Source of the DNA: Alphaproteobacteria bacterium
Lineage (GTDB): Bacteria > Pseudomonadota > Alphaproteobacteria > Rs-D84
Length of the DNA stretch: 64,000 nucleotides
Assembly: GCA_017475605.1 (NCBI GenBank)
Contig: JAFVFD010000002.1
Coordinates: 11,769-75,768, forward strand
Direction: 5' to 3'
Shown here piece after piece: positions 7,227-61,100 of the stretch (positions are counted from its first letter, which is position 1; each line of letters opens with the position of its first letter). Under the pieces are notes generated by a model that saw only the letters and a program-made list of their open reading frames with translations, was not told the DNA's origin and ran no database searches. The position numbers and the translations under genes are program-made.

Positions 7227-7794
7227 ATTTCCTTAAGTCATAAACAAATAGTTTGTGTGGATATTTATATCGACCATAACGTGTGGAACCATGGCCAACA
7301 TCAATTATGTGTGTCGGCTTTAATTCATCAATTGGCACATCAAGTGTGATAATCATATCAAATTGTTTTGTGTATTCCGCCAACCGATAATTAGTGTTCG
7401 GTCCCAGGTACGCAACCCCTATATCAAATCTTGGCGATGATTTTAAATATTCAAACGCATCGCATTTTATAATTTGAATATGCGTGCGTGCGAACCAATT
7501 GGCGATGCGTGAAACAGTTATGGTAAATGGCATGTTTTCCAATGCCACGACCGTCGCATTACAATTCCGCGCGATATATCGTGCCAGTCCGCCATATCCC
7601 GCACCAATATCAACAATCGATGTCGCGTTTGGGTAATATTTATTTATGGTACGTACCACTGCGCGACGCAAACGCTTTGCACTGGCCACAAATGGTATTT
7701 GATTGTGCGCAATGCACCAAATATATTCCGCGCCATATACGATGATATACAATTCGCCGATAAAAATTAAAAACGCAATTATGTACGCAATCAT
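7225..7794 (-). CDS. Class I SAM-dependent methyltransferase with an N-terminal TM helix
   Basis: Motif I VDIGAGYGG. 189 aa. Confidence 0.6.
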   Translation of the reverse strand: MIAYIIAFLIFIGELYIIVYGAEYIWCIAHNQIPFVASAKRLRRAVVRTINKYYPNATSIVDIGAGYGGLARYIARNCNATVVALENMPFTITVSRIANWFARTHIQIIKCDAFEYLKSSPRFDIGVAYLGPNTNYRLAEYTKQFDMIITLDVPIDELKPTHIIDVGHGSTRYGRYKYPHKLFVYDLRK

Positions 7795-11766: not shown

Positions 11767-11843
11767 GCGCCCATGGCTCAATTGGATAGAGCATCTGACT
11801 ACGGATCAGAAGGTTGAGGGTTCGAATCCTTCTGGGCGCGCCA
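11767..11843 (+). tRNA. tRNA-Arg (anticodon ACG)
   Basis: Folded by hand. Acceptor GCGCCCA/TGGGCGC. D-arm GCTC..GAGC. Anticodon stem TCTGA/TCAGA with loop CTACGGA. T-arm GAGGG-TTCGAAT-CCTTC. CCA is encoded. Confidence 0.9.
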
Positions 11844-11851
11844 GGTTTAAT

Positions 11852-11880
11852 AAAAAACACCACCTTGTGTGGTGTTTTTT
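11852..11880 (+). terminator. Terminator after tRNA-Arg
   Basis: aaaaaACACCACCttgtGTGGTGTttttt. Confidence 0.8.
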
Positions 11881-11897
11881 ATTAAATATTCTTGATG

Positions 11898-12045
11898 TCG
11901 CCCAGAAGGATGGGTCAGAGTGTCCAAAGGACACGCATGACCAATACGCAGATGAATAATTAAAAAAAATCTTAAAAAATCGACCGAGAGAGATTTTTTT
12001 GATTTTTATTATTATTCATCAAGGGGGAATGAATGGGCGCGCCAG
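11898..12045. repeat. Element B, copy 1. It is bounded on the left by an inverted copy of the tRNA-Arg 3' end and on the right by a direct copy of it. A second copy lies at 39436..39583
   Basis: Left flank CGCCCAGAAGGAT is the reverse complement of tRNA-Arg ATCCTTCTGGGCG. Conserved core GATGGGTCAGAG..GCATGACCAATACGCAGATGAA-AATTA. An AT-rich spacer follows, then ATCAAGGGGG plus GGGCGCGCCAG (the tRNA 3' terminus), then a terminator. Confidence 0.75.
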
Positions 12046-12082: not shown

Positions 12083-12219
12083 TCTGGTCGCCCCAGGATT
12101 TGAACCCGGTCAAGTTGCGCAGCAACGCAGGGTTCGAAAACAAGTAGATTTGATAAACGCAGTGCAATCAAATCGTCACGGTTTGCGCGCAGGCATTTAT
12201 GCCGAGCGAATCCTTCTGG
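12083..12219. repeat. Element A, copy 1 (conserved ~135-nt structured element). A second copy lies at 39240..39385
   Basis: It starts with CTGGTCGCCC, an imperfect inverted copy of the tRNA-Arg 3' end. Next comes GGATTTGAACC (a reverse-complement T-arm), a hairpin, then GGGTTCGAAAACAAGTAGATTTG and a conserved core. It ends in the hairpin GGCATTTATGCC and GAGCGAATCCTTCTGG, which is the tRNA-Arg T-arm 3' half plus acceptor. Confidence 0.75.
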
Positions 12220-12225
12220 ACATGC

Positions 12226-12305
12226 TTTTATTTTTGTTTATCAAGGGGGAATGAATGGGCGCGCCAGGTTTAATAAAAAAACACCGTCTTTTGCGGTGTT
12301 TTTAT
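12226..12305. repeat. Third junction copy: TTTGTTTATCAAGGGGGAATGAAT, then the tRNA-Arg 3' end GGGCGCGCCAG, then a terminator copy
   Basis: It matches the right end of element B and the tRNA 3' end GGGCGCGCCAGGTTTAATAAAAAACACC. The terminator aaaaaaACACCGtcttttGCGGTGTtttt also serves the minus-strand OMP gene. Confidence 0.7.
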
Positions 12306-25130: not shown

Positions 25131-25283
25131 TCAAAAAACCACCTAAACAGGTGGTTTTTAAAATTTTGGTGCGAGCAAAGTACTTCGGCAATTTCATTGC
25201 CTTGCCTCGCAACTCGCCCCTTTGCCGACAAAATCAAAAAACCACCCAAACAGGTGGTTTTTAAAATTTTGGTGCGAGCAAAG
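25131..25283. repeat. Two direct copies (~47 nt each, ~105 nt apart) of the tRNA-Gly 3' end plus its terminator hairpin. The segment between them carries an inverted fragment of the same tRNA
   Basis: AAAAACCACC[T/C]AAACAGGTGGTTTTTAAAATTTTGGTGCGAGCAAAG occurs at 25131..25180 and again at 25237..25283. GCCCCTTTGC in the intervening segment at 25214..25223 is in the sense orientation of the minus-strand tRNA, so it is inverted relative to the gene. Confidence 0.8.
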
Positions 25284-25346
25284 GGGCTCGAACCCTCGAC
25301 CTCAACCTTGGCAAGGTTGCGCTCTAGCCAACTGAGCTACGCTCGC
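25270..25346 (-). tRNA. tRNA-Gly (anticodon GCC)
   Basis: Reverse complement: GCGAGCG-TA-GCTC-AGTTGGCTA-GAGC-G-CAACC-TTGCCAA-GGTTG-AGGTC-GAGGG-TTCGAGC-CCCTT-TGCTCGC-A-CCA. This is a perfect cloverleaf with CCA encoded. Confidence 0.88.
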
Positions 25347-39115: not shown

Positions 39116-39206
39116 GGAGACGTCGCATAGTTGGTCTAGTGCGCCACATTGGAAATGTGGTATACTCGCAAGGGTATCAAGGGTTCGAATCCCTTCGTCT
39201 CCGCCA
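39116..39206 (+). tRNA. tRNA-Ser (anticodon GGA)
   Basis: Acceptor GGAGACG/CGTCTCC. Anticodon stem CCACA/TGTGG with loop TTGGAAA. Long variable arm. T-arm AAGGG-TTCGAAT-CCCTT. CCA is encoded. Confidence 0.88.
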
Positions 39207-39239
39207 GAAAATTACCCCGCATTTGCGGGGTTAATTTTT

Positions 39240-39385
39240 GGCGGATATGTGAGGCAGATTTGAACCATTAGCAACGAATGTTGCTGGGTTCGAAAACAAG
39301 TAGATTTTGCAAGCGCAGCGTGGCGAAATCGTTACGGTTTGCCCGCAGGCACATTGTGCCGAGGGAATCCCTTCGTCTCCGCCAG
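39240..39385. repeat. Element A, copy 2
   Basis: It starts with TGGCGGA, an inverted tRNA-Ser 3' terminus. Then ..CAGATTTGAACC, the hairpin AGCAAC-gaat-GTTGCT, GGGTTCGAAAACAAGTAGATTTTG, a core, and the hairpin GGCACA-tt-GTGCC. It ends with GAGGGAATCCCTTCGTCTCCGCCAG, the tRNA-Ser 3' end. Both hairpins carry compensatory changes relative to copy 1. Confidence 0.75.
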
Positions 39386-39435
39386 AAAATTAAAATCTTA
39401 AAACGCCCCGTTCGGGGTGTTTTTGATTTTAACTG

Positions 39436-39583
39436 GCGTGGACGAAGGGATGGGTCAGAGCGAAGCGCATGACCAATACGCAGATGAACAATTACAAAAC
39501 CTGCAAAAACGGATATTTTTAATAGAGTTTTTGCGTTTAGGTTTTGTTTTTGTTTATCAAGGGGGGGGTATCGTCTCCGCCAG
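39436..39583. repeat. Element B, copy 2
   Basis: GGCGTGGACGAAGGGAT is the reverse complement of the tRNA-Ser 3' end, with 15 of 17 bases matching. Core GATGGGTCAGAGCGAAGCGCATGACCAATACGCAGATGAACAATTA. An AT-rich spacer follows, then TTGTTTATCAAGGGGGGG plus CGTCTCCGCCAG. Terminator copies lie at 39398..39426 and 39598..39625. Confidence 0.75.
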
Positions 39584-39688
39584 AAAATTAAAATCTTAAA
39601 ACACCCGTTCGGGGTGTTTTTTATTTAGGAGGGGGAGGAATTGATTGATTTTTTTATGGTTTTGTGATATAATATGTGCAACTAAACG

Positions 39689-39713
39689 GACGGCATTTGC
39701 CGTCTTTTTTTAT
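39689..39713 (+). terminator. Terminator-like hairpin between the repeat array and the toxin gene
   Basis: GACGGCAtttGCCGTC followed by a T-run. Confidence 0.55.
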
Positions 39714-39758
39714 TTCCACCGCTACGTGCGGGTTTTTTATTTAACAAAAGGAGTTATA

Positions 39759-40910
39759 ATGCAAACACCAAAATTTTTACGCAATTTATTACAATCTAAT
39801 AACTATTGGAATAAAAATAGTACTGAATTCGCAAAAGCAAATGAATATCTGGAAAAGTTATATCCAGTGCAACTGTCCGCTGATTTATCAGGAAGATTTG
39901 TTGAACCGCCATACGATATGACCCTGGAACAATTTGAAAGCGCACAACGGCAATTCGACAAAGATTTGGAAGATGCGATTCATGAAGCAGAAGATTCAGT
40001 AGATGATGCAAATGGAACAGCAGAGCCAATTGACTATGACCAATATGTAGATATTGAAGAAACGATAGATGTTCGTGTTTTGATGCCAGGTGGAAATATA
40101 GAATATATGCAACTTGTCGTATATATGTTGAATTTGCCTGATGATGACACTGATGTGGAACTGGAACCAGATAAAACACAAAGGATTTGGATATGGCACA
40201 GCGAAGAAGACGAAAATGTTTGCGATGATTGTGTATCACACGATGACGAAGTATTCGAAGACAAAGACGATATTCCAGAAATTCCCGTGCATCCTAACTG
40301 TCGTTGTTGGGTTGAAGAAGTAAAGTTAGATGACAACGGTAAACCTATTTCAAGTAAAGCATACAAAGGGCAAAAGCCAGAAATACCGAAAAATGACAAA
40401 GAACCTCAGTCAGAAAAAACGCCAACTTTTGATAAACCTGTTGATATAAAAGAAGGTCAATATGCCACATTTGACGGGAAAAATCTGACTATATTTCAAG
40501 ACGGCAAAGTTGTTGCTTCGTGGAATGCGGTATCAGGTCGTCCAGAGTATCAAAGTCCAGAATATCAAAATCTAAAATCCACAGGTCCAATTCCAGAAGG
40601 TGCATATGTAGCAAGACAAGAAAAATTACAACATATGTCACCAGCAGATTGGGCAATTGGATGGTCCAGAGTTCTGGGAAATAAATTTGGTGGGAAATGG
40701 CCGGGTTCATCTGTTTCTTGGGGAAATTCTCGCGTATGGCTGGAACCTTCAAAAGAAACAAACACTTTTGGACGTGACAAATTCAGTATTCACGGAGGCT
40801 TGTTTCCTGGTTCTGCAGGTTGTATAGATTTGACGGACCAAATAAACTCTTTTACATCTTGGTTGGAAAGTACTGGAAAAGATTTACTGATATATGTAAA
40901 ATATAAATAA
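39759..40910 (+). CDS. Fusion protein with polymorphic-toxin architecture: a MuF-like C-terminal motif (CxxC...HPNCRC) plus a C-terminal L,D-transpeptidase/YkuD-like domain
   Basis: Start taken at MQTPKF with an AAGGAG Shine-Dalgarno (the ORF track starts earlier, at 39645). VCDDCVSHDDEVF...IPVHPNCRCWV resembles the phage Mu F / SPP1 gp7 C-terminal signature. The C-terminus FSIHGGLFPGSAGCIDL resembles the L,D-transpeptidase His...Cys active-site motif. No signal peptide. Confidence 0.5.
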   Translation: MQTPKFLRNLLQSNNYWNKNSTEFAKANEYLEKLYPVQLSADLSGRFVEPPYDMTLEQFESAQRQFDKDLEDAIHEAEDSVDDANGTAEPIDYDQYVDIEETIDVRVLMPGGNIEYMQLVVYMLNLPDDDTDVELEPDKTQRIWIWHSEEDENVCDDCVSHDDEVFEDKDDIPEIPVHPNCRCWVEEVKLDDNGKPISSKAYKGQKPEIPKNDKEPQSEKTPTFDKPVDIKEGQYATFDGKNLTIFQDGKVVASWNAVSGRPEYQSPEYQNLKSTGPIPEGAYVARQEKLQHMSPADWAIGWSRVLGNKFGGKWPGSSVSWGNSRVWLEPSKETNTFGRDKFSIHGGLFPGSAGCIDLTDQINSFTSWLESTGKDLLIYVKYK

Positions 40911-46431: not shown

Positions 46432-49400
46432 CTACCACGATATATATCCTGGATTACACGTCCGTTCGCACTTTTTGGTGGCATTGTTCCACCGCAGCGA
46501 ACCTGTTTCGTCTGAATATGGGCGATCACAAATTGGGACACATTCGTTGTTGTCCAAATTGTACTTTTCGCCTTGATACAGACATGATGCTATTTCGCAA
46601 CCGGTGCTGTAACTGGCCGCGGCAACTTCGCCCAGAACACTGAACTTGTTGCGACATGCGCTGCACTGTTCGGATGCGTTATTCTTTTCGTATGGGTCGT
46701 TCGTATAGCCCGGTACGCACGATGTCGCAATACATTCGTTCCATGAACCCGTTGCGGTGTTCCATGTCTTTGTACCAACACCGTTCGGGACGTTACACAC
46801 CTGTTCATTTTCAACACACGCGTTTGATGCCAGGTGGAACCCATCTTCACACGATTTTATCGTACAGATGCCGAATGCGCCATGTGCTGCATCCCACTTC
46901 TGTGTGGCAACTGTTGCGTTTGGTGCCACGTCTGTACAATCTTTGACATCTTCCTCACAAACACTGTTGTATGGATGGTAACCAATCACGCAGCTTTCAA
47001 TTATACAGTTTCCATCAGGTTTATAGGACAATGCGTTTTCACGATTGCATGGCTTACATGACCCATTGACCATTTCGTAGTTACTGATACACGCTGTTTC
47101 TATACAATGCCCGTCAACAACTTCTGCCGGGTTACCAGTCGCAGATGTACCAGTGTACTGACAATTGTTTGGCCAATAGGCGGTGGTTTCAACTGGGCTA
47201 AGGGTACAATTATCCTCAACATATCCAGTACACTTGCGGTAACAATCGCTTGCCTTGGTGGCCCCAGGGGCTGAATACATCCAACTGCCATCACCCAGGT
47301 CCGCGCAAGATTTCGCGCCGTTGCCACCTTCGCCGCCCGGTGTTCCATCACAGAAACTGCCCGCTGGACAAGTTACACATTGGCCATTGGACAGTGTATA
47401 ACCTGATGCACAAGATGTAATCGCACATGTGTCTGTGGCAGTATAATAATCATGGCCCGACATCGCATTTGCGTTTTCGCCCATTGTACAGTCGCGATAG
47501 CAATATGCCTTATCTATTGTTCCTGCTTCTGACTTTGGATACAACCCACCAGTCAGATATTCGCAGGTTTCTACTTCCTGTCCAGGTTCACATACACTGT
47601 TTTCTGGACATACGAAGCAGGCACGTTCGCTTTCGCTGGTTGCTGTACGTGTTGTTGTCCCCGCCGGACACGCATACCGCGCCAAATCGCGATCTGGGCT
47701 GTAATACGCATAGTCCGCCACAGAACATTCTATATCGGTCGCATTTGCCAACCAATAACCCGCATCGCAGTACAGCATAGTTGGGGTTCCGCAACCGGCC
47801 AGGTACGCATCATCCGCAACACTCCATTTACATGTGCGTTCGCCACCACCATGTTCCGCAACATACGGTTGTCCATTCTTCCAGCATTCAGATATCGTAC
47901 TGGTGTTGTTGTATGATGTCTTACCTTCGTTCGGACACGCATGACGTTCCAGTTCGTCTTCAATGCTGTAATAGTTGAAGTCTACGACAGTACATGCGAT
48001 ATCTGTTTGTGCCGCCAAATAATACCCACCACGACACTTTGTAATAACCTTGTCAAAGCAATCGCGTCCATAAACCGCACTATTTCCTGTGCCATTTGAA
48101 TACCAGCAACTTTGTGTCCCAGTACCCGACCCATCGGTCGCCGCATAGGCCAAATTCGCCTTGAAGCATTCCTGGACCGTTTCCGCGGTTGTGTTATCAG
48201 ACTTCGTTGTACCGCCATTCGGGCACGCATCACGTGTTAATATATTGTTCGCACTGTAATACCCGACACCGGCCGCTGAACAATCGGTGCCTGTTGTGGT
48301 TGCCAACCAATGACCCGCATCACAGGATGTTATTACAAAGTCTTTACATCTGTCGGAATAGGCCAGGGCTGTTTCGTTGTAATAACATGTTTGTGTACCG
48401 CGTCCATGTGTTGCAACATATGTTGGCAACAATTCTTTATAACATGCCGCACTGCTTTCCGAATTGGCAGGCGATTTACCATCGTCCGGACAGGGTTCAA
48501 TACCTGCCTGGCCAGAATTTGTAACGACGGTTACACCAGGGCAATAGTTGTTTGCCGTACATGGTAAACAGTCTGTTGTCGGATTTTCGCCGGCACCGCG
48601 ATAATATTTACCCACTGGACATGTAATAGGTGCATCGGTCCATTGTGCAGAAACCGTAGCATTGGATGTTGTAAATGTCAGTGCGGCCGTTGTTGTTACA
48701 AATTTGCCGTCCGCATCAACAACAGATACATTATTCCCTGTGTATCCAGCGAATGTCAACACACCCTTGACCGGTTTTGTGGTCAGTGTGGTAATTGCCG
48801 TTGTGGCGGCTGCATTTGAATACCAGCCGGTCGCATACTTCAAATACACCTTGGCCGGTGAACCAGCGGTTGTCGCACCATTGTGATTCAATGTGATTTC
48901 ATACACATTCGGTGTCCACTGGGCAAACAATTCAATATCAGATGCATCAGACGATATATTTGTCGTAACCGTAGTACCCGCGTTATAGCATGTGCCACCA
49001 CCATTCGCCGCGGTGCACCATTTGTTCGCGGTGCTGTACCCGGTGCGTGTATCCACAATCGCCGGTAATGCGCATGCGCCACTGTCGAATGTGCACTTTA
49101 CACTTGGTGCGGTTGAACCCGTACCACCATTTTTGTTAAGGGTAATGGTGTATTCGTGTGCATCGCATGTTGGTGCGGCGGTGTTGTTGTTTTTGACATC
49201 ATAACCGGTCTTGCACACTACATTGTATGAACAAGCATTATATGTTGTCGCGCTGTTACCATACACGATATTTTCCGCGGCGGATACAGTCTTGGAATTT
49301 GCGAAATCCGCAGGTGTTTTATCGCATTCGGTATAGCATGCGGTGTAACTTGCCGCGAATTCTGTTGAACCCGCCCAGCCCGCCGGACATTCCGTTTGGG

Positions 49401-52400
49401 TTGTTGCACCATCACCACTGTAATAACCGCTTGTTGTGCCGGAACACGCGAACGAACCGGCGACCCTGTAAAAGTATCCCGCGTTACAGGTCAAAGCATC
49501 GGCATCCATACAGTTATTATAATCACCACTAACTTCTGTGCCGTTGTAATAGCATGTGGCGAAACCTGTACCATTTGCCCAATTGTGATTTGGATAGCCG
49601 GTTGTTGCGGTATATGGATTATATGTTACATAACAAGTCTCAATACCACGATATTTTTGACCTTCAACCAGGGCGGCCTTGCCCGGGGTGCCATCTTTGT
49701 CGGTCGGACAGTCGTGGAATCCATCTGTATCGCACCACATATCTTCTGGGCAAACATTGGAACTATAGATACATTTGTTATAAGCATTTGTCGTTGTGTT
49801 ATAGGAAACATGTTGGCTTACCACATTAACGGTAGTTCCGTTCAGATTCTTGGTTGCTTTACATGTCAAATAACAATCTGTAATCGCTTTACCATTTGTC
49901 GCACTGCCAGTATTTGGTGTGTTGCTGACCACATCGCCAGATGTATCTGTACCCGCGGGGCACACATTTAATTTAGTAGATGTGGTATCTGTTATATTTG
50001 TTTCGTTCCAATTAGTCGGGGCAGGACTCCAATTGCCATCGCCAACCGCAACACAGTCCAGATTTTCATTTGTACTTGTTGCGCCGTCTAATTCATCATA
50101 GTATCCAGCATCACACTTGCGCATTGTATAACTGTTGCCGCAATTGATTGAATAGGTGTTGTTAACAGTGCTCCAATGGCAACGTTTTGTGCGACCACCA
50201 TGAGTTGTCTTTTCCCAAATGCCTTCGCGGACACAACCTTCTATCGAGCCACTTTCATCACCATCTGTGGATATCGTATTACGGGAATCATCAACATCGT
50301 ACACAGCTTCTGGACAGCGTGTGCGTGCGGTAAAGTTGGTCGCACTGTAATATTGATAACCAACCAAAGAACAGTCAGTTGTTGTTTTGGTTGTATCCAA
50401 CCACCAACCACTGTTACATGTCAATATTTCAATTGTATTACAGTCGGAATTATACTTGCCCGCACTGTAATGGCAAACCTGCTTACCCTTACCATGATCT
50501 GCGCTGTATTGTACTGTGGCAAAGCAGTCTGATTCTTCGTCTCTGCCATTGTCAGAACCAACACTTGGGGCAACATTGGAAAGCGCGGTGCCGTTCCAGG
50601 TTTGTGCCGGGGTATATGTTGTCCCCGCAACCGCAGTTGGACAGGCGTTTATAAAGTGATTCTGGCCATCGCGGTCTTCGTCGCTGTATGCGACACCACC
50701 CGGACACCATGACCCATTCGGACAAGACTTACATGCGTTGTCTGCATCATCAAAATATTGTCCCGCATTACATGTCTTGGTCTTTTTAGCAACCCAACTT
50801 GCTGTCAGGGTTGTTGTAGTTGTGGTATCGGTATAATTTACCAGTTTATTGGTCGCCACGATTTGACCGGTGCCATTTATCACAGCAACCTGGGTTCCGC
50901 CAATCGTTGCATCATAGCCAGAACAATTCTGTGAGCCCTTGGTTGGCAGCACGATGCTTGTTATCGCGTTTGTCGCGGCGGCATTTGAATACCAGCCTTT
51001 GCCATATTTCATATAGATTGGACCATCTGTACCACCGGTACCACCATCTTTTGCTAATATGAATGTATAGATGTTTGGTTCACATGTTGTACCAGATGTA
51101 TGATAGCCGGCAACGCATACTGGGTTTTGCCAGGTGCATGTTCCAAATGTACCACTTGTTGTAACGGTTTTGTTCGTTGGGTTGTATGCCGTTATGGTCC
51201 CGGCAAAACTGACCGTTTCCGCAACCGGCGCACGTGTACCAATTACTTCGCCATTGTCGGTAACATTCACCGATGAACAAGAGTTATAACATGCTGTCGG
51301 CAAAGCACTCTTTTCGCCTTCTGTTGTGGAATTGATGTGTCCAGGCAAAGCACTACATGGATAGCGCGCCATACTTACAGCGTCTTCTGTGTTATTTGTC
51401 GGGGCGGGGCTCCAATTGCCTTTACCCGCTGGTTCACAGGTAGAAGAATCTTCTGCAACGCGATAATAACCACCACTGCAGTATTTAATTTTTATAGATT
51501 CACAGTTCTTATACCCGGCACTTGAATCATCAACATAATTGCAAACCTGGTCGCCACCACCGGTTCCATTGGCCAAGGCCACACCTGTTCTTGTCGTTTT
51601 ACATGCGGTAACAGCAGAACTGCCCGCCGGTGATGTTACGGCCCCGCCAGATGTGTCTGTTGGGCAAGTCTTATGGCACCCGTCATCTGCCTTGTCTTTG
51701 TCTTCGTAGTCAACCTGGCCACCTGGGCAATAGAAGCCAGCAGGGCATTCTGCGTCAGAACCAGTTAACCCAGCGGTACATGTGAACAAGTTTGTTGACC
51801 AACGGGCATACAACGTGTCAAATACACCCGCGGTTGATGCGGTGCCGCCTTCGGCTGTGTCGGCAATACCAATGGTTGTTGCTACCGACAGATTACCAGA
51901 GGCATCGATTACTTGAACCCCACCTGTTTTTTCAGATACGGTATAGTAGCCCATAAATGTGTGATTTTCCCATGTCGGCGGTGTAATCTTGGTTACCGTT
52001 GTGCCAAAGTTAGTCAAAGACCACCCAATTGAATATTTTTCATATATGGTCTTGTTTGTGCCCGGCGCACCGTTAAGGTCAAGTGTTATTGTGTACACCT
52101 TGGGATCACATGTACCCGCTGTTGCGTTTTTATCATAATTGCCCATGCAGGTATATGTCATGGCACAACTTGACGGCATCGCGGTACATCCGCATAACAC
52201 ACCGTCTATATTATTACAAGTGCCATCGCAATAATAGTCTGCACCACTTGTTTTTGCGTTTTCATTTTGGGTGCATGTCTTATTGTTGGCTGGGCATACT
52301 TGCGGTGTACAATACAAAGAGCATGTTGTATAGCATGTTCCACACGCACCACCTGTGTTGCCAAGTATCGACTGATTGTAGCCGGTTGTACTACAAGATT

Positions 52401-54987
52401 CGCATGTTCTTGTTTCTGTATTTTCGAAATATCTGTTCTTACACCAAACTTGTTTAAGTTGGCATGCAGTATTGTTTACATTAGTACATGCAGAACTTCC
52501 ATAATCTGAAATACCAGCAACCTTGTTTTCTGTATCATAAGAACAATTTGTTGAGTTTGTTGGGCATGTGCTTGGTTCAACACAAGTTGCGGTGTTACAT
52601 GTTTTATAGCAGCCCGCAGATGTTGTCGATGCCGCATCAGACTTGGTATATTCCGATCCCAATGTTGTACAGGCAACAAAGCATCCCGCGCTACCTTCAA
52701 TAGCAGTTCCGGTGCCCGGACAGTATTTACCGTCGGTTGGGCAATCTACGTGTTGTTCGCCATCGTAGTATTTACCAGCCTGACATTGAACGGTATTTTG
52801 AGACCAATGTGCATATAGTGTTGTATTGGTGGTCTTATCCCAAAGACGCAAAGAAACACCACTTGCGGAATAATATTGTGTTCCGCCTGTTTGTGCATCA
52901 AAATACCCGGCAAAAGACCATGTGGCGCGTGTCGGCAATTCAGAAGCAGACAAGGCCGGCAGATGCGCATCGTATGTCGCCGTAACTGATGATTTACAGC
53001 CCGTTCCACACGTGCCTTCATTTGCGTTCAGTGTAACTTGATATTCTAATGGTTCGCAATATGTGCCATCATCACTTACTTTATATCCTTCTGTACAAGA
53101 GAATGGTTCGTCATCGCCCGGACAGGTGGCATGTGGAACGCATGCGTTACAACCGTTGCCGGACAGATAATAATTTTCAGCACACGCAGTTGCCGCGCAA
53201 TTGTTTTCCCCATTTTTATGATAAATGCCAGATACCGTCTTTGAACCCGCAACATCGGATACCTTACATTCACGATAACAATAATTCGAATCGGTTGTTC
53301 CCTGGACTGAATAAGGGAATGTCGAATTAGATGCCGAACATAATGTACAATTTGTCGCGGTCGTAGATGCAAAGTAATTAGCGGCAGCCACAACCGGCGC
53401 AACAACCGTTTTGTTACATGTGTTTGTGTTTGTTTCACAGCCGCTCTTTATGGTGCCATCGGCGGTACCTGTCGCGTTCGAATATGCGACATAATCGCAT
53501 GTCGCCGGTGTACAATCTTGGAATGTGGCAGAAACGCAACCGTTTGGTAATGTTTCAATATGTGCGCCACTTGATGTACGCTGTTTGGTCTCGCTGAAAC
53601 ATTGGGTGATGGCGGTCGATGTCGTGCTTTCTGTGTGTGGGTATGCCGTAGGGCATGTTTCGCATGCCGCATTCGCCTTGGCGGATGATGCCTTGTACTT
53701 GTTGTATCCGCATGCAGTCCACACCGCATAAACCGTTTTGTCAGTTGTTATTGTTATTGTATACGAACCAGTCGTCGCAGATGCAGATGTTGCCCAGCCA
53801 CCAAATACATAGCCCGCACGATAGAACGAGTTTGTATCACCACTGGCCAGTGTACATTCAACCCCGGATGCACATTGTTTGTTTGCTGGTTTTGTCCCAT
53901 CACCACCATTCAGGTTATATGTTACAGTGAACGTATCTTGGGAATAATTGCCGGTAAATGTAACTGTGCCGGAATACACCCCAAGGTTTTCATAGGTACA
54001 CGCAATACCGGTTTGTCCACTGCCGAATGATTTAGTAACCAAAGTACTTGGAACCCATGATCCAAATGACCAATTGTCAACAGTTGGTGCGGTTGCCGCA
54101 TTAAATGTTTCGCCATATGTACATGACGCAGGGGTTGTTGGTGCAGTACCTTTTGTTGGTGCCCAAACAAAGTTAATCGTGTTTGGTGTCGCGGTACATG
54201 TATATGATGTCGCACCTGCGGTTGAATTGGTTTGTGTGGTATTTGTGGTATAGCCTTGGTCGGCTTCTACACTATACACACACTTGTTGTCGTTTGAAGT
54301 TGTGGATGCGGTACAGGTCTTTACCCCCGTACCCTTGGTGGCAAGACACGCACTACATGCATACGGTGCAGACCCTGTGCGAACATATTTTGAACTACAT
54401 GTTTTAATCGTACAAAGGTTAGTTATAATATTGTTGTTCCAGGCCGTTGTTTCCCAGTTTGCGACATTAGACGCATTGGCGCAGTTTGCATCGCAACTGG
54501 TCTTGCCGGTACCACTGGTGGTTTTGCCTGCGGCACACGCGGTACAGGATGTGTTGCCGGTACCGGTATTGTATGAACCTGTGGCACACGCAATACACGC
54601 ACTTTCGGCACTGCTGCCGGTGCTGGCATTGTATGTTCCGGCGGAACATGCTGTGCGACCACCAACATCATCATAATGTACAGTAACTCCGCCCGGACAA
54701 TATCCGCCGGCGGTACAGGTCGTTTCGCCCGCACCAGCGGTTGCTACATACTTACCGGCCGTTGTTGTTAAATAACAGTTGTTTATGCCACCTGTGGTAT
54801 TATCAGATGCACTGTTTGGATAGTTTGTTGGGCATTTTGCGCACTGACTGGACCCATCAAGGTAATAACCGGCATTACAGCTGATGTATGTTTTTTCGCA
54901 TGAATAGCCCTCGGCAAAAGAATTCGCCGAAAATGCGAACAGAAACAAACCAACGAAAAACCCGAGAAAACAGCGCTTTCTTCCCAT
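46432..54987 (-). CDS. Giant secreted cysteine-rich repeat protein 1 (~2850 aa). It has Listeria-Bacteroides (Flg_new) repeats, ephrin-receptor-like CxxCPxGxYC modules, a reiterated ~70-aa Cys module, and a ~500-aa C-terminal region shared with gene 2
   Basis: Signal peptide MGRKRCFLGFFVGLFLFAFSANSFA, with the start at 54987 preceded by AGAGAGGAAG. YTITLNKNGGTG...TGYSTANKWCT and YEITLNHNGATTAG...FAGY are Flg_new-like. Many modules of the type CLPCTANNYCPG and CKSCPNGSWCPGG. Repeated module CDAGYWL..C...YYS..R..CP.G. Confidence 0.85.
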   Translation of the reverse strand: MGRKRCFLGFFVGLFLFAFSANSFAEGYSCEKTYISCNAGYYLDGSSQCAKCPTNYPNSASDNTTGGINNCYLTTTAGKYVATAGAGETTCTAGGYCPGGVTVHYDDVGGRTACSAGTYNASTGSSAESACIACATGSYNTGTGNTSCTACAAGKTTSGTGKTSCDANCANASNVANWETTAWNNNIITNLCTIKTCSSKYVRTGSAPYACSACLATKGTGVKTCTASTTSNDNKCVYSVEADQGYTTNTTQTNSTAGATSYTCTATPNTINFVWAPTKGTAPTTPASCTYGETFNAATAPTVDNWSFGSWVPSTLVTKSFGSGQTGIACTYENLGVYSGTVTFTGNYSQDTFTVTYNLNGGDGTKPANKQCASGVECTLASGDTNSFYRAGYVFGGWATSASATTGSYTITITTDKTVYAVWTACGYNKYKASSAKANAACETCPTAYPHTESTTSTAITQCFSETKQRTSSGAHIETLPNGCVSATFQDCTPATCDYVAYSNATGTADGTIKSGCETNTNTCNKTVVAPVVAAANYFASTTATNCTLCSASNSTFPYSVQGTTDSNYCYRECKVSDVAGSKTVSGIYHKNGENNCAATACAENYYLSGNGCNACVPHATCPGDDEPFSCTEGYKVSDDGTYCEPLEYQVTLNANEGTCGTGCKSSVTATYDAHLPALSASELPTRATWSFAGYFDAQTGGTQYYSASGVSLRLWDKTTNTTLYAHWSQNTVQCQAGKYYDGEQHVDCPTDGKYCPGTGTAIEGSAGCFVACTTLGSEYTKSDAASTTSAGCYKTCNTATCVEPSTCPTNSTNCSYDTENKVAGISDYGSSACTNVNNTACQLKQVWCKNRYFENTETRTCESCSTTGYNQSILGNTGGACGTCYTTCSLYCTPQVCPANNKTCTQNENAKTSGADYYCDGTCNNIDGVLCGCTAMPSSCAMTYTCMGNYDKNATAGTCDPKVYTITLDLNGAPGTNKTIYEKYSIGWSLTNFGTTVTKITPPTWENHTFMGYYTVSEKTGGVQVIDASGNLSVATTIGIADTAEGGTASTAGVFDTLYARWSTNLFTCTAGLTGSDAECPAGFYCPGGQVDYEDKDKADDGCHKTCPTDTSGGAVTSPAGSSAVTACKTTRTGVALANGTGGGDQVCNYVDDSSAGYKNCESIKIKYCSGGYYRVAEDSSTCEPAGKGNWSPAPTNNTEDAVSMARYPCSALPGHINSTTEGEKSALPTACYNSCSSVNVTDNGEVIGTRAPVAETVSFAGTITAYNPTNKTVTTSGTFGTCTWQNPVCVAGYHTSGTTCEPNIYTFILAKDGGTGGTDGPIYMKYGKGWYSNAAATNAITSIVLPTKGSQNCSGYDATIGGTQVAVINGTGQIVATNKLVNYTDTTTTTTLTASWVAKKTKTCNAGQYFDDADNACKSCPNGSWCPGGVAYSDEDRDGQNHFINACPTAVAGTTYTPAQTWNGTALSNVAPSVGSDNGRDEESDCFATVQYSADHGKGKQVCHYSAGKYNSDCNTIEILTCNSGWWLDTTKTTTDCSLVGYQYYSATNFTARTRCPEAVYDVDDSRNTISTDGDESGSIEGCVREGIWEKTTHGGRTKRCHWSTVNNTYSINCGNSYTMRKCDAGYYDELDGATSTNENLDCVAVGDGNWSPAPTNWNETNITDTTSTKLNVCPAGTDTSGDVVSNTPNTGSATNGKAITDCYLTCKATKNLNGTTVNVVSQHVSYNTTTNAYNKCIYSSNVCPEDMWCDTDGFHDCPTDKDGTPGKAALVEGQKYRGIETCYVTYNPYTATTGYPNHNWANGTGFATCYYNGTEVSGDYNNCMDADALTCNAGYFYRVAGSFACSGTTSGYYSGDGATTQTECPAGWAGSTEFAASYTACYTECDKTPADFANSKTVSAAENIVYGNSATTYNACSYNVVCKTGYDVKNNNTAAPTCDAHEYTITLNKNGGTGSTAPSVKCTFDSGACALPAIVDTRTGYSTANKWCTAANGGGTCYNAGTTVTTNISSDASDIELFAQWTPNVYEITLNHNGATTAGSPAKVYLKYATGWYSNAAATTAITTLTTKPVKGVLTFAGYTGNNVSVVDADGKFVTTTAALTFTTSNATVSAQWTDAPITCPVGKYYRGAGENPTTDCLPCTANNYCPGVTVVTNSGQAGIEPCPDDGKSPANSESSAACYKELLPTYVATHGRGTQTCYYNETALAYSDRCKDFVITSCDAGHWLATTTGTDCSAAGVGYYSANNILTRDACPNGGTTKSDNTTAETVQECFKANLAYAATDGSGTGTQSCWYSNGTGNSAVYGRDCFDKVITKCRGGYYLAAQTDIACTVVDFNYYSIEDELERHACPNEGKTSYNNTSTISECWKNGQPYVAEHGGGERTCKWSVADDAYLAGCGTPTMLYCDAGYWLANATDIECSVADYAYYSPDRDLARYACPAGTTTRTATSESERACFVCPENSVCEPGQEVETCEYLTGGLYPKSEAGTIDKAYCYRDCTMGENANAMSGHDYYTATDTCAITSCASGYTLSNGQCVTCPAGSFCDGTPGGEGGNGAKSCADLGDGSWMYSAPGATKASDCYRKCTGYVEDNCTLSPVETTAYWPNNCQYTGTSATGNPAEVVDGHCIETACISNYEMVNGSCKPCNRENALSYKPDGNCIIESCVIGYHPYNSVCEEDVKDCTDVAPNATVATQKWDAAHGAFGICTIKSCEDGFHLASNACVENEQVCNVPNGVGTKTWNTATGSWNECIATSCVPGYTNDPYEKNNASEQCSACRNKFSVLGEVAAASYSTGCEIASCLYQGEKYNLDNNECVPICDRPYSDETGSLRWNNATKKCERTCNPGYISW
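48660..49290. repeat. Near-identical intragenic repeat, copy 1 of 3 (Flg_new pair unit). The other copies are at ~57320..57960 and ~59700..60250
   Basis: The ORF track shows identical spurious peptides (MPPPFAAVHHLFAVLYPVRVSTIAGNAH..., MIQCDFIHIRCPLGKQF...) at all three places. A DNA comparison by eye shows only scattered mismatches over ~500 bp. Boundaries are approximate. Confidence 0.8.
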
Positions 54988-55061
54988 AACTTCCTCTCTT
55001 TTATATTTCATGGTAGAAAAAATATATGGGGTAGTGCAAGAATAAAATTAACAAAATATAA

Positions 55062-55103: not shown

Positions 55104-58100
55104 TTACCACGATATATATCCTGGATTACATGTCCGTTCACACTTTTTGGTGGCATTGTTCCACCGCAGCGAACCTGTTTCGTCTGAATATGGTTTGGCA
55201 CAAATTGGGACACATTCATTATTTTCCAAATTGTACTTTTCGCCTTGATACAGACATGATGCTATTTCGCAACCGGTGCTGTAACTGGCCGCGGCAACTT
55301 CGCCCAGAACACTGAACTTGTTGCGGCATGCGCTGCACTGTTCGGATGCGTTGTTCTTTTCATACGGGTCGTTCGTATAGCCCGGCACGCACGATGTCGC
55401 GACGCATTCGTTCCATGAATTTGTTGTGGCATTCCATGTCTTTGTACCAACACCATGTTCAATGTCGCATGCTTGTTCGTTTTCAACACATGCGTTTGAC
55501 GCCAGGTGGAACCCATCTTCACACGATTTTATCGTACAGATGCCGAATGCGCCATGGGTCGCATCCCATTTCTGAGTCGCCGCGGTTGCGTGTGGTGCGG
55601 CGCAGCCTTTGACATCTTGTTCACAAGTGTTGTTGTATGGGTGATATCCGATTGTACAACTTTCAATCACGCAATTTCCGTCTGATTTATAGGACAGGGC
55701 ATTTTCACGATTACATGGCTTACACGACCCATTAATCATTTCATAATGGCTGTTACATGATGTTTCAACGCAACGTCCGTCAACAACTTCCGCTGGGTTA
55801 CCGGTTGCAGATGCACCAGTGTACTGACAATTGTTCGGCCAATAAGCAGTATTTTCAACCGGTGTTAATGTACATGTGTCTTCAATATATTCTGTACACA
55901 TACGGTAACAATCGCTTGCCTTATTAGCACCTGGGGCTGAATACATCCAACTGCCATCACCCAGGTCCGCGCAAGATTTTGCGCCGTTGCCACCATCGCC
56001 ACCCGGTGTTCCATCACAGAAACTGCCCGCGGGACAGGTTACACATTGACCGTTGGATAAACTGTAACCCGGTGCGCACGATGCAATTTGGCATGTGTCC
56101 GCGGCGGTATAGAAATCGCGTCCAGACATGGTGTTTGCGTTTTCGCCCATTGTACAGTCGCGATAGCAATATGCGGCATCAGTTGTTCCGGCATCTGATT
56201 TTGTAAATTGTCCACCGGTTAGACTATCACACGTTGCCACCTCTAATCCTGGTTCACATACACTGTTTTCTGGGCAAATAAAGCATGCGCGTTCATTTTC
56301 ACTGGTTTGTGTGCGTGTTGTAGAACCCGCCGGACACGCATACCGCGCCAAATCGCGATCTGGACTGTAATACGCATAGTCCGCCACAGAACATTCTGTA
56401 TCTGTTCCGTTCGCCAACCAATAACCGCCGTTACAATATGTCATTGTCGGAACACCGCAACCGGCCAGATAGGCATTATCCGCAACACTCCACTTACATG
56501 TGCGTTCACCACCACCATGTTCCGCAACATACGGCTGACCGTTCTTCCAGCATTCAGATATCGTACTTGTGTTATTGTATGATGTCTTACCTTCGTTCGG
56601 ACACGCATGACGTTCAAGTTCGTCTTCAATGCTGTAATAGTTGAAGTCTACGACAGTACACGCGATATCTGTTTGTGCCGCTAAATAATACCCACCACGA
56701 CACTTCGTAATAACCTTGTCAAAGCATTCGTGTTTATAGACGGCATCGTTTCCGGTACCACTTGAATACCAGCAACTTTGTGTCCCGGTACCCGAAGAAT
56801 CTGTTGCGGTATAATCAAGGTTTGTCTTAAAGCATTCGTCAACGGTTTCCGCGGTTGTGTTATCAGACTTTGTTGTACCGCCATTCGGGCACGCATCACG
56901 TGTTAATATGTTATTCGCGCTGTAATACCCGACACCGGCCTCCGAACAATCGGTGTCTGTTGTGGTTGCCAACCAATGACCCGCATCACAGGATGTTATT
57001 ACAAAGTCTTTACATCTGTCGGAATAGGTCAGGGCATTTTCATTGTAATAGCATGTTTGTGTACCACGACCATGTGTCGCAACATATGTTGGCAACAATT
57101 CTTGGAAACACATTGTCGCACTTGCGGTACCAACCAAAGACTTACCGTTGTCTGGGCATTCATCGATACCTGCCTGACCAGAGTTAGTCATTACGGTTAC
57201 ACCAGAACAATAGTTGTTTTCCGTACATGGCAGGCAGTCCGTTTCGGGCATTTCACCGGTGCCACGATAATATTTACCCGCCGGACATGTAATAGGCGCA
57301 TCGGACCATTGTGCCGTCAATGTGGCATCGGCCGTCGTAAATGTTAATATCGCGGATGTTGTGGCGAATTTACCATCAGAATCGATTACAAAAACATTGC
57401 TTGTATTCTTGTATCCGTCAAATTTTAATACACCCTTGACCGGTTTTGTGGCAAGTGCTGTAATTGCCGTTGTGGCGGCTGCATTAGAATACCAGCCGGT
57501 CGCATACTTCAAATACACCTTGGCCGGTGAACCAGCGGTTGTCGCACCATTGTGATTCAATGTGATTTCATACACATTCGGTGTCCACTGGGCAAACAAT
57601 TCAATATCAGATGCATCAGACGAAATATTCGTCGTAACCGTAGTACCCGCGTTATAACATGTACCACCACCATTCGCCGCGGTGCACCATTTGTTCGCGG
57701 TGCTGTACCCGGTGCGTGTATCAACAATCGCAGGTAATGCGCATGCGCCACTGTCGAATGTACATTTTACACTTGATGCGGTTGAACCCGTACCACCATT
57801 TTTGTTAAGGGTAATGGTGTATTCATGTGCATCGCATGTTGGTGCGGCGGTGTTGTTGTTTTTGACATCATAACCGGTCTTGCACACAACATTGTACGAA
57901 CATGCGTTATATGTTGTTGCACTGTTACCATATACGATGTTTTCTGCGGCGGATACAGTCTTGGAATTCGCGAAATCCGCGGTTGTTTTGTCGCATTCGG
58001 TATAGCATGCGGTGTAACTGCCGGCGTTAGCCGTTGAACCAGCGCAACCGGCCGGACAGGCAATTTGATAAGTAGAAGAGCCTGCCTGCGCGACGGTCGG

Positions 58101-61100
58101 TTTGGTTTCGCCCGCAAAATAGGATTGTTCAGGGCTGTAATAACAAGTATCAACAGACGAACATTCCATGCCGGTCTTGTAGTAATAACCAGCATCGCAC
58201 GTCAATGCGCCCATATCTGTATAATTAGAGTATGTATTGGTTGATTTTTTATAGAATGCCTTTACCCAACCTGTACCCTTGGTCCACAAATTGTTATCTA
58301 TAGATTTGAACGGATTGTACAGAATGTAACATGTATCAATATCGCGATACTTCATGTTGTCAACCAAGACAGCCTTGCCGGTTGTGCCATATTCGTCGAC
58401 TGGACAATCATGGAATCCATTTGTGTCGCACCACATATCTTCTGGGCATGTATCTGAATCATACATACATGTGTTATATGCGGACTTGCTAGTGTTGTAA
58501 GAAACATATTCATTAACAACTTCGGCTATTGTTCCATTAAGATTCTTGGTTGGGTTACATTTCAACCGACAGTCTGTGATAAATTCTGCTGTTTCCGTTG
58601 GTGTACCGGGGTTAGTGCTTGTTACATCTGTCGCGCCTGTGCCGGCTGGACATGCGTAACGAACAAGTGCAGCATCTGGACTGTAATATGCATTACCCGC
58701 CACAGAACATTCTATATCGGTCGCATTTGCCAACCAATAACCAGCATCGCAGTATAACATGGTTGGTGTTCCGCACCCGGCCAGGTACGCATTATCTGCA
58801 ACACTCCATTTGCATGTGCGTTCGCCACCACCATGTTCCGCAACATATGGTTGACCGTTCTTCCAGCACTCTGATATTGTACTGGTGTTGTCGTACGTGG
58901 TTTTACCTTCGTTCGGACACACGTGGCGTTCCAGTTCGTCTTCCGCACTGTAATAATTATAGTCGGCCACAGAACAAGTCTTGTCGGAAGCATTTTTCAA
59001 ATAATATCCGCCACGACATTTTGTAATGACTTCATCAAAGCAATTGCGTCCATAAACCGCATTATTCCCGGTACCACTTGAATACCAGCAACTTTGTGTC
59101 CCAGTACCCGACCCATTAGATGCCGCGTAATCCAGATTTATCTTGAAACATTCCTGGACTGTTTCCGCGGTTGTATTATCAGACTTTGTTGTACCGCCAT
59201 TCGGGCACGCATCACGTGTTAATATATTGTTCGCACTGTAATACCCGACACCCACCGCCGAACAATCTGTATCGTTTGTATTTTTCAGATAATAACCTGC
59301 ATCGCAAGATGTCATAACAAAATCTTTACAGTTCGCAGAATAGGTCAGGGCATTTTCATTGTAATAACATGTTTGTGTACCGCGTCCATGTGTCGCAACA
59401 TAGGTTGGCAACAGTTCCTTGTAACATGCGGCACTGCTTTCCGAATTGGCCGGCGATTTTCCACCGTCCGGACATGCGTTTAATCCACGTACACCGTCAT
59501 CGGTCGCAAACGAGCCGCCCGGGCAATAATGGTTTTCGGTACATGGCAAGCATGTTGAACCAGAACCACTGTAATATGTTTTTGCCGCGCATGTTGTGTT
59601 CCCGGCCGGCCATTTTGCCGTAATTTCCGTATTTGTTGATGTAAATGTCAGTGCCACCGCAGATGTGCTAAACTTGCCATTTGTGCCAATGATTTCGTTG
59701 TCGTTCGTATCATAATAGCCCGCAAATTCATAACCTGTTTTCTGGGGTTTGGTGACAAGTGTGGTAATCGCCGTTGTGGCGGTCGCGTTTGAATACCAGC
59801 CGGTCGCATACTTCAAATACACCTTGGCCGGTGAACCAGCGGTTGTCGCACCGTTGTGATTCAATGTGATTTCATACACATTTGGTGTCCATTGGGCAAA
59901 CAATTCTATATTTGATGCATCAGACGATATATTTGTCGTAACCGTAGTACCCGCATTATAGCATGTGCCACCACCATTCGCCGCGGTGCACCATTTGTTC
60001 GCGGTGCTGTACCCGGTGCGTGTATCAACAATCGCCGGTAATGCGCACACACCACTGTCAAATGTACACTTTACACTTGGTGCGGTTGAACCCGTACCAC
60101 CATTTTTGTTAAGGGTAATGGTGTATTCATGTGCATCGCATGTTGGTGCGGCGGTGTTGTTGTTTTTGACATCATAACCGGTTTTGCACACAACATTATA
60201 TGAACAAGCATTATATGTTGTCGCGCTGTTACCATACACAAAGTTTTCCGCGGCGGATACAGTCTTGGAATTGCTGATGCTTGCGGGGGTCTTGTTACAT
60301 TCGGTATAGCATGCGGTGTAACTGCCGGCGAATTCTGTTGAACCCGCCCAGCCGGCCGGACACTCTGTCTGGGCTGTTGCACCGTTTCCGCTGTAATAAC
60401 CGGTTTCTGTGCCGGAACACGCGAACGAACCAGCAATTTTATAATAGTATCCAGCATTACATGTTTTTGCATCAACATCCATACAGTTAGAATAATCGTT
60501 TGTTGAATTGGTATAGAAACACTTTGCCCAACCAGTACCATTTTCCCAATTGTGATTTGGATAGCCGGTTGTTGCGGTATATGGATCATATTTTACATAA
60601 CATGTATCAATACCACGATATTTTTGACCTTCAACCAATGTTGCTTTACCTGGTGTGCCATCTTTGTCGGTCGGACAGTCGTGGAATCCATCTGTGTCGC
60701 ACCACATATCTTCTGGGCAAACATTGGAATCATAAACACAAGTGTTATATTTATTCGTACCATAAGACACAGTCGGTGTTTTTACTTCGACGGTTGTACC
60801 ATTCAGATTCTTGGTTGGATTACATGTCAAATAGCAGTCCGAAATAGAACCAGATGTTGTGGTCGCTGTGTCTGGGGTTGTGCTTACCACATCAACCGCG
60901 CCTGTGCCAACCGGACAATCATAACGTTGTGTCGAAGAGCCCGGGTTTTGCATGCTTGGTTGTAATTCTTCGCCCGAGAATGCTGACTGTGCAGGGCTGT
61001 AACGTCCTTTGCCAACAGGTACACAATCGCGGTCGCCATCAGAATTAGTATACGAACCATCGTCATAATAACCCGCATCACAAGTTACAATCACAGATAC

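Follow-up and report, generated by a model that had tools for sequence, protein, structure and literature searches.

Element A, a strongly covarying core inserted into T-loop copies behind alphaproteobacterial tRNA genes

REP/REPIN sequences, mobilised by RAYT (Y1 HUH) enzymes, are short extragenic palindromes located 3' of genes near terminators, in which structure matters on one strand; they occur in tens to hundreds of copies per genome, often as inverted dimers. Their superfamilies are told apart by a GTAG or CGTC tag at the base of a short palindromic stem, those with CGTC being found chiefly in alphaproteobacteria (PMC3733652). Miniature inverted-repeat transposable elements (MITEs) derived from IS200/IS605 (palindrome-associated transposable elements, PATEs) are devoid of terminal inverted repeats (TIRs), carry subterminal hairpins and insert strand-specifically 3' of a short fixed target. 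The att repeats of tRNA islands and of derivatives without an integrase, the cis-mobilizable elements (CIMEs), frame an insert with direct repeats of the 3' end of the target gene. The present study describes Element A, which resembles each of these in part and occurs twice in a 64,000-nt stretch (hereafter the window) of contig JAFVFD010000002.1 from an Alphaproteobacteria bacterium. Element A is a composite, made of a frame situated behind a tRNA gene and of a core inserted into that frame. Judging from the comparisons given below, it may be a miniature, non-autonomous, strand-specific mobile element that targets hairpin loops, REP/IS200-like in style and under selection, a reading to which we attribute a probability of about 0.42.

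Copy 1 lies behind tRNA-Arg(ACG) (11767-11843, +; ARAGORN, Rfam tRNA model 68.2 bits), whose 3' end reappears as copies in the units downstream and whose own terminator is located at 11845-11887 (+). Its inverted arm TGGTCGCCCCAGGATTTGAACCC (12085-12107, +) matches, when read directly, the reverse complement of the tRNA-Arg 3' end (CCA, acceptor strand and T-arm) in degenerate form. It is followed by the P1 hairpin GTTGC-gca-GCAAC (12114-12126, +) and by GGGTTCGA (12130-12137, +), which corresponds to the 5' strand of the T-stem plus the start of the T-loop and forms the left flank of the insert. The core itself measures 72 nt (12138-12209, +; covariance model match of 99.6 bits, E = 4e-23). 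It is composed of P2 (AAAC..GTA-GATTTGAT / ATCAAATC-gt-CAC-g-GTTT), one nucleotide, P3 (CGCGC..GCATttATGC..GAGCG) and a closing A. The remainder of the tRNA-Arg T-loop and T-stem, ATCCTTCTGG (12210-12219, +), is truncated by the next module, an AT-rich sequence termed Z (..TTTGTTTATCAAGGGGGAATGAA) that leads into a second tRNA-Arg acceptor 3' strand with CCA (12256-12266; together 12220-12266, +). The array is closed by an intrinsic terminator (12277-12303, +), a near-duplicate of the one belonging to the tRNA. The Z module of copy 1 was also seen at other loci of the family (L037, L061, L063, L015 and L047).

Copy 2 displays the same layout behind tRNA-Ser(GGA) (39116-39206, +; ARAGORN and Rfam tRNA model), with the inverted arm TGGCGGATATGTGAGGCAGATTTGAACC at 39239-39266 (+), the P1 hairpin AGCAAC-gaat-GTTGCT at 39270-39285 (+), GGGTTCGA as left flank at 39286-39293 (+) and a 73-nt core at 39294-39366 (+; 101.1 bits, E = 2e-23). 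Here the right flank, ATCCCTTCGTCTCCGCCA (39367-39384, +), is the exact 3' end of tRNA-Ser from T-loop position 59 through CCA, and an intrinsic terminator follows at 39400-39423 (+). The 22-mer GGGTTCGAAAACAAGTAGATTT, common to both copies, had no further occurrence in the window when up to three mismatches were allowed, and none in any dinucleotide shuffle of it. Likewise, the covariance model retrieved just two copies in the window (~100 bits each), and 103 in the fetched loci.

A sequence-only reading of the window had placed Element A 3' of tRNA-Arg and tRNA-Ser, and the blocks it listed were all seen in the pairwise alignment. Its picture of a T-arm split by an insert of ~95 nt was correct as to the split, which is general across the family, but not as to the size, which is 72-73 nt. 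The main covarying helix (P2) lies within the ~60-nt core that it delimited. The reverse-complement T-arm noticed at the 5' side is present but belongs to a longer inverted copy, itself degenerate, that spans the whole tRNA 3' end.

A genome scan (exact 18-mer, one genome per species) returned 90 loci, of which 88 came from metagenome-assembled genomes (MAGs) of gut or rumen alphaproteobacteria and the other two were chance coding matches. The hosts, labelled 'Candidatus Enterousia' or 'uncultured Rickettsiales/Alphaproteobacteria', represent at least 51 species-level assemblies. About 80 of 95 cores were situated 55-130 nt 3' of a same-strand tRNA, belonging to at least 16 isoacceptors (ARAGORN). 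A metagenome scan with a looser pattern added 113 loci and 119 cores, 77 of which lay less than 150 nt after a same-strand tRNA, with 18 isoacceptors. The family thus exceeds 200 copies, behind at least 18 kinds of tRNA gene. Tandem arrays were also encountered: three units with a period of 167 in L034, and further arrays in L002, L038, L082 and L035. No match to the core was found in the viral contigs scanned, BLAST of phage and plasmid records gave no match to Element A, and our literature searches found no description of it.

Throughout the family, a unit reads 5' to 3' as terminator, inverted arm, linker or variable P1, (G)GGTTCGA, core, (A/T/G)TCC continued by the local tRNA 3' end through CCA, and terminator. 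An inverted arm related to the local tRNA was present in all members and typically ended in ..GGA(N)-GA/TT-GAACCC, the degenerate reverse complement of CCA, acceptor strand and T-arm. The first half of the core consensus is AAAC-AA-GTA-GATTxxxx, a loop with a mini-hairpin, and xxxxAATC-GT-YAC-G-GTTT; the second half consists of one nucleotide, C-N-C-G-C-A-G, a variable hairpin and C-G-A-G-N'-G-A. The ends of this consensus read AAACAAGTAGATT... and ...GAGNGA. Core lengths vary between 62 and 112 nt and do not keep to multiples of three, pointing to a noncoding sequence.

Support for the core structure comes from covariation. RNAalifold predicted P2 and the lower part of P3 from 68 distinct cores, and pairs were then counted on the core alignment with a hand-refined structure, using 500 shuffles as control. 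Paired cells amounted to 96.5%, versus 85.8% in shuffles, and none of the 500 shuffles reached the observed value. Covariation over a larger set of copies, anticipated from the two window copies, was borne out by the aligned cores: 170 double-change cells were counted, versus 46.7 in shuffles (0/500), and only 1-20 when partners were slid by one to three columns. The main covarying helix, P2, is GATTxxxx/xxxxAATC; its pair 29:47 was the most variable (UA21, CG17, GC17, UG13), and the N:N' pair (66:105) occurred as CG45, GC15 and AU5. All non-Watson-Crick cells of pair 29:47 were U:G wobbles on the + strand, which indicates that the selected strand is the tRNA-sense one, either as RNA or as top-strand single-stranded DNA (ssDNA). 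The compensated changes noticed between the window copies in P1 and upper P3 also extend to the family, where both regions form hairpins whose sequences vary widely. P1 folded better than shuffles, and the 51 distinct upper-P3 segments had a mean minimum free energy (MFE) of -5.7, versus -1.4 in shuffles. With P2 and lower P3 covarying strongly and core lengths indifferent to the reading frame, the proposal that selection acts on structure and not on coding was upheld. Outside the stems, GTAG (columns 21-24) and CGT(C/T) (columns 52-56) flanked the 8-bp P2 stem in 68/68 aligned copies. MFE folds repeatedly formed a cloverleaf-like four-way junction (basal helix, P0/P1, P2 and P3), with internal loops of only 1-3 nt in the core. 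In three copies (L021 1-105, L031 37-166 and L085 728-856), the apical loop of P2 contained an extra segment of ~40 nt (..CATCGGGCCCCGCAAAATTTGAAAAATTTTGTGGGTGATAAATAG..), which shows that nested insertions are tolerated there.

The core is a discrete unit that was inserted at several unrelated places, always just after ...GA. In copies of the tRNA end, the insertion point fell exactly between T-loop positions 58 and 59 (TTCGA|core|A/T/G-TCC). Over 60 distinct contexts, position -2 was G in 57 and position -1 was A in 58; the left flank was GTTCGA in most of them, and the right flank (ATCC, TTCC or GTCC) tracked the remainder of the local T-loop. Since GA is found at both junctions, a 2-nt duplication is indistinguishable from a fixed target. 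The core has no TIRs, its orientation relative to the T-loop is fixed, and it was usually located in the loop of a hairpin or palindrome. A number of copies were found in other surroundings. The core of L070 resides inside a B/Z module (cccacGA|core|gttttt) that is uninterrupted in L022, and the + strand copy of L012 has the unrelated flank aaaGA|. In L104, L115, L129, L130 and L163, far from any tRNA, the core is placed between GC-rich hairpins (..CTCCCCCtatGGGGGAG-A|core|ATT..CTCCCCCagaGGGGGAG), the flanks being ~43-nt inverted repeats. Head-to-tail fusions were observed as GAGGGA|ACACAAG in L049 (three cores), L019 and L027, as GAGCGA|AAATAAG in L010 and as GAGGTA|AAAC in L143. The same core in unrelated contexts, together with these fusions, substantiates the initial suggestion that a small element entered the T-loop of a duplicated tRNA 3' half. 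Two metagenome loci (L125 and L174) displayed a hybrid composed of the left half of the A core, the body of another unit (B, see below) and Z. This hybrid was flanked by ~75-nt direct repeats comprising the last ~30 nt of a minus-strand outer-membrane beta-barrel gene and its terminator, showing that duplication of a gene 3' end with its terminator is not limited to tRNAs.

In the frame, the 3' end of the upstream tRNA is repeated: its terminal 11 nt reappeared ~85-95 nt after the core start. A downstream copy was present for 59 of 98 tRNAs and an upstream one for a single tRNA. This 3' copy was truncated in L011, L012, L024, L029 and L033. The inverted arm is a less faithful copy, and its bases opposite T-loop G57-A58 were systematically non-complementary, mostly GA (GGAA-GA-GAACCC, GGAC-GA-GAACC, GGAT-TT-GAACC; e.g. 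window 12096-12107), the TC of the TCGA site being altered to GA, GC or TT. The TCGA target is thereby destroyed in the arm, and tandem G.A mismatches would result at the junction. By contrast with these bases, the segments adjacent to the junction were conserved (GAACCC:GGGTTC and GGAA:TTCC). Pairing of the arm with its own 3' tail was slightly better than with tails of other tRNAs (-12.5 vs -11.2 kcal/mol, p = 0.009), a difference too small for a maintained tRNA acceptor mimic. A tRNA-like minihelix as a maintained feature was dismissed on this marginal own-tail pairing and on T-stem pairing of 3.3/5, versus 2.9 in shuffles.

The loci behind tRNA-Gly(CCC) were orthologous across 13 species, as judged from synteny of the neighbouring genes, and allowed the rate of change of each part to be compared. 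Unpaired core bases were invariant and stems covaried. The inverted arm and the terminators drifted and even a few tRNA positions changed, while the direct copy of the tRNA end stayed identical to the tRNA. The core therefore persists vertically under purifying selection, with hardly any change over dozens of species.

How these traits are distributed among the described systems is as follows. As in REPs, structure matters on one strand and the units are found 3' of genes near terminators; the tags are also present, since the 8-bp P2 stem, which opens with A:T-rich pairs, has an invariant GTAG directly on its 5' side and CGTC/CGTT directly on its 3' side. Unlike REPs, Element A has two different hairpins, a size of 72-73 nt, long invariant unpaired stretches and a precise insertion after GA at a T-loop-like or hairpin-loop site. 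Its copies are single or head-to-tail, not inverted dimers, and only two occur in the 64 kb. No RAYT was found among those open reading frames (ORFs) of the 88 loci that recurred across tRNA types. The layout of IS200/IS605-type MITEs was also recognised: no TIRs, no or minimal target duplication, hairpins at both ends and an insertion that is strand-specific and lies 3' of a fixed short target. The right end, GNGA, is similar to the target, xCGA, and the covarying N:N' pair beside this end recalls the pairing of guide to cleavage site. In contrast to these MITEs, the hairpins of Element A abut the ends directly, its size is much smaller than that of known PATEs and its target lies inside copies of tRNA 3' ends. 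Neither tnpA nor tnpB was found with Element A, and no autonomous relative with tnpA (Y1) and the same ends was present in the 88 genome-scan loci plus the window (~0.72 Mb).

Similarities to att repeats and CIMEs concern the direct repeats of the target gene's 3' end on either side of the insert, the duplicated terminators, the supply of a replacement 3' end and terminator by the incoming DNA, the tandem accretion behind tRNAs and the T-loop junction. Element A differs from them by inserts of 110-230 nt, an inverted att copy, homology across at least 18 tRNAs and a covarying core. Integron attC sites and the attP(+) of CTX phage share with it imperfect inverted repeats with conserved mismatches, strand-specific structure and arrays of small cassettes, but the arms of Element A copy the local tRNA instead of a fixed site and its apical sequence is highly conserved. 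We know of no link between Element A and IntI or Xer. Among tRNA-like RNAs (tmRNA domain, YrlA and viral ones), GGTTCGA, the T-stem/acceptor 3' strand with CCA and a predicted four-way junction are common traits. Yet ARAGORN detected no tRNA or tmRNA at either copy, only the three tRNAs of the window passed Rfam 15 gathering thresholds, acceptor pairing is not maintained and the T-loop is interrupted. Instead of a cloverleaf with acceptor, D, anticodon and T arms, as in a tRNA gene or pseudogene, there are only a T-arm and an acceptor 3' strand split by the core. With Rfam at E up to 10, nothing credible was obtained over the core at the two loci, the best overlaps scoring 12-25 bits against thresholds of 47-80. 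Bridge or seek RNAs of IS110/IS1111 (~150-190 nt, two large guide loops, adjacent DEDD transposase) resemble Element A only in that both target strands are copied and a 2-nt repeat seems to be present, and this assignment was rejected for reasons of size (72-73 nt), loop architecture and lack of an adjacent transposase. A TnpB-type guide RNA, in which a scaffold would be followed by a 3' guide corresponding to the tRNA end, was discarded on logical grounds: the scaffold is too small, and the TTCGA resembling a target-adjacent motif, with the target, is also present in the intact tRNA gene.

If Element A is mobile, the core would be handled as single-stranded nucleic acid by a trans-acting enzyme encoded elsewhere, in the style of REP/RAYT or IS200/IS605 (HUH Y1), or of hairpin-targeting IS110/IS1111. 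The two subterminal hairpins and the P2 stem with its invariant GTAG/CGTY flanks would constitute the recognition surface. Real tRNA T-loops would offer the same target without tolerating the insert, so that only spare copies of tRNA 3' ends would keep a core. The repeats of tRNA 3' end and terminator would be of the kind produced by integration into a gene 3' end that restores the gene, and transcription, if any, would proceed by read-through from the tRNA promoter.

Several observations weigh against such mobility. ORF clustering over the 88 loci retrieved syntenic housekeeping genes only, and no transposase, RAYT or integrase recurred beside A units. No empty target was found, either as an uninterrupted spare T-arm copy or as an uninterrupted GGGGAGAATTCTCCCC. 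Neither did the ~0.72 Mb contain a longer, possibly autonomous copy with separated ends; left-end or middle motifs devoid of a partner were only chance or truncated copies. Copy number is low, unlike that of REPs, with ~3-6 loci per MAG in the better MAGs. Structural support comes from covariation, not from stability: z-scores of the core alone were unremarkable (-0.8 to -2.1). The MFE fold of copy 2 coincides with the consensus fold (z = -2.1). Invariant unpaired bases at vertically inherited loci are expected of a functional host RNA or DNA site and not of a dormant MITE. Terminators on the + strand stand on either side of each A unit, whose orientation is nearly always that of the tRNA; this fits a transcript. 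Finally, a mobile core gives no account of why an inverted arm and a matching direct copy appear at each new tRNA.

Orientation, terminators and conservation in situ make a functional noncoding RNA the main rival, possible although on the whole doubtful. Such a putative RNA would be read through from the strong tRNA promoter and end at its own terminator or at a tRNA-like processed CCA end; its four-way junction would be a protein-binding or catalytic fold, and its spread to many tRNAs would be secondary. This would suit the tRNA strand occupied in nearly all cases, the sense-strand G:U wobbles, the recurrent cloverleaf-like junction and the 13 orthologous loci with invariant junction bases amid drifting flanks. 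It would also suit terminators before and after each unit coupled with the lack of an own promoter (no promoter-like site was found 5' of the A units in the window), and an island equipped with a tRNA 3' part, a terminator and an A unit of its own (L065/L048). Against it, cores also occur without a tRNA or flanking terminators and opposite to the neighbouring gene (L115, L129 and L125), the acceptor mimic hardly exceeds foreign tails, several members have a truncated 3' tRNA copy and no Rfam family matched even at E up to 10. Alternatively, the whole unit could be a micro integrative cassette moving as folded ssDNA, its arms pairing to rebuild a duplex tRNA 3' end on which a tRNA-targeting tyrosine recombinase would exchange one strand with the chromosome, as for CTX attP(+) and integron attC. 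This is the sole model that gives the inverted arm a role. One-strand exchange also predicts the order observed (tRNA, element terminator, inverted arm, body, direct arm, original terminator); tandem arrays, variable module order (B-A in the window, A-B in L079), the systematic GA-opposite-GA mismatch and a G:T-tolerant strand-specific structure would be explained as well. Integrases targeting tRNAs do use the same tRNAs, one of them beside a rolling-circle Rep gene (L047). We nevertheless consider this cassette unlikely, because the core moves by itself, free of arms, pairing of the arms is poor in their acceptor part, and recombinases for at least 18 tRNAs, or a way to re-derive arms, would be required; moreover no circular or single-stranded form is known, and the L047 and L043 islands stand apart from the A unit, each with an att repeat of its own.

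Ordinary integrative islands occupy the same tRNAs at L043, L047, L048 and L090. The ~4.5-kb islands of L047 (3000-7300) and L043 (314-4727) reside in tRNA-Tyr and tRNA-Arg, respectively. The former encodes a DUF6538-type tyrosine integrase and a REP_ORF2-G2P rolling-circle replication protein; the latter encodes a 523-aa large serine recombinase, a MerR-like protein and a DUF6994 protein. L048 and L090 correspond to ends of defence islands or prophages. In these islands, an own att repeat without core and a terminator precede the A unit, which suggests that A units are resident rather than being ends of islands; for L043 and L047, a core acting as the island end was rejected on the same observation. 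On one contig, A units were seen both behind an intact tRNA-Arg(TCT) and behind a partial tRNA-Arg(TCT) at the far end of an island, and the two units differ. At least one island thus appears to carry a unit with its replacement tRNA end. Direct repeats of a tRNA 3' end with its terminator are a hallmark of integrase-mediated insertion, and with such islands at the same tRNAs, Element A could be viewed as an inert scar of decayed islands or prophages, without function or mobility. This is very unlikely: a scar would not keep ~45 unpaired bases invariant and stems covarying over more than 50 species and 18 tRNAs, the core was absent from the ends of the intact islands examined, and phage and plasmid collections gave no match. 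At the other extreme, the core might belong to a new class of small functional nucleic acid, being either a self-cleaving or self-inserting ribozyme-like RNA or the recognition module of a new integration system specific for single-strand hairpin loops, which would target tRNA T-loops and reconstitute the tRNA 3' end in doing so, giving inverted and direct copies. This proposal, which we regard as quite unlikely, accommodates the invariance of the junction bases, the placement precisely at 58|59, the GA opposite GA at the junction and the lack of a family match.

Other small modules accompany Element A. All tRNAs of the window, including tRNA-Gly(GCC) (25270-25346, -), are followed by an intrinsic terminator and by at least one small unit, which begins with an inverted copy of the tRNA 3' end and finishes with a direct copy and another terminator. 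The array behind tRNA-Arg runs terminator, B unit, terminator, Element A with Z, terminator; that behind tRNA-Ser runs terminator, Element A, terminator, B unit, terminator. Element B, the second conserved unit (11897-12044 and 39434-39580, +), starts with an inverted copy of the tRNA 3' end stopping at the T-loop 'AT', followed by the hairpin GGGTCAGAG..GCATGACC. It continues with AATACGCAGATGAAYAATTA..AAAATCTTAAAAAATCG.., an AT-rich Z module (..TTATTATTRTTYATCAAGG), a tRNA acceptor 3' strand with CCA and a terminator. Genomes differ in the relative order of A and B, which is B-A behind the tRNA-Arg of the window and A-B in L079. A shorter unit, C (25150-25262, -), located 3' of tRNA-Gly(GCC), consists of an inverted copy of the tRNA-Gly 3' end (GCAAAGGGG), ~36 nt with a hairpin (GGCAATgaaATTGCC), CTTTGCTCGCACCA and a near-identical duplicate of the tRNA terminator. 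Module D, CCCGMTAGTTGRTGARAACGAGTGYMAACGAAGTTYGAAYC, was seen in L001 (~7520-7570), L007, L018 and L030 (second unit), where it abuts a T-loop-like GTTCGA or the right end of an A core.

The genes around both window copies are ordinary housekeeping genes. The one right after the tRNA-Ser array (39645-40910, +) gave weak Tlde1 / L,D-transpeptidase-like and phage Mu F-like matches, and may be a toxin-type or phage-derived gene beside the array. Farther downstream, two adjacent giant ORFs on the minus strand (46432-55011 and 55104-63800; 2859 and 2898 aa) are highly similar to each other and carry internal repeats with periods of ~267-288 nt and ~555 nt (repeat families D1-D20).

Element A constitutes an undescribed family, which we rate as a small structured repeat or a MITE whose tRNA T-loop target is unusual and whose arms match the tRNA. 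It comprises more than 200 strongly covarying copies and is conserved in no fewer than 51 species-level genomes from a little-known clade of gut and rumen alphaproteobacteria. If mobile, it would be among the smallest mobile modules known, with the most conserved loop in biology, the tRNA T-loop, as its target. A dedicated enzyme, if one exists, would represent a compact and highly site-specific single-strand insertion system. The finding also raises the question of whether tRNA 3' flanks serve in these bacteria as a nursery for modular micro-elements such as A, B, Z, C and D.

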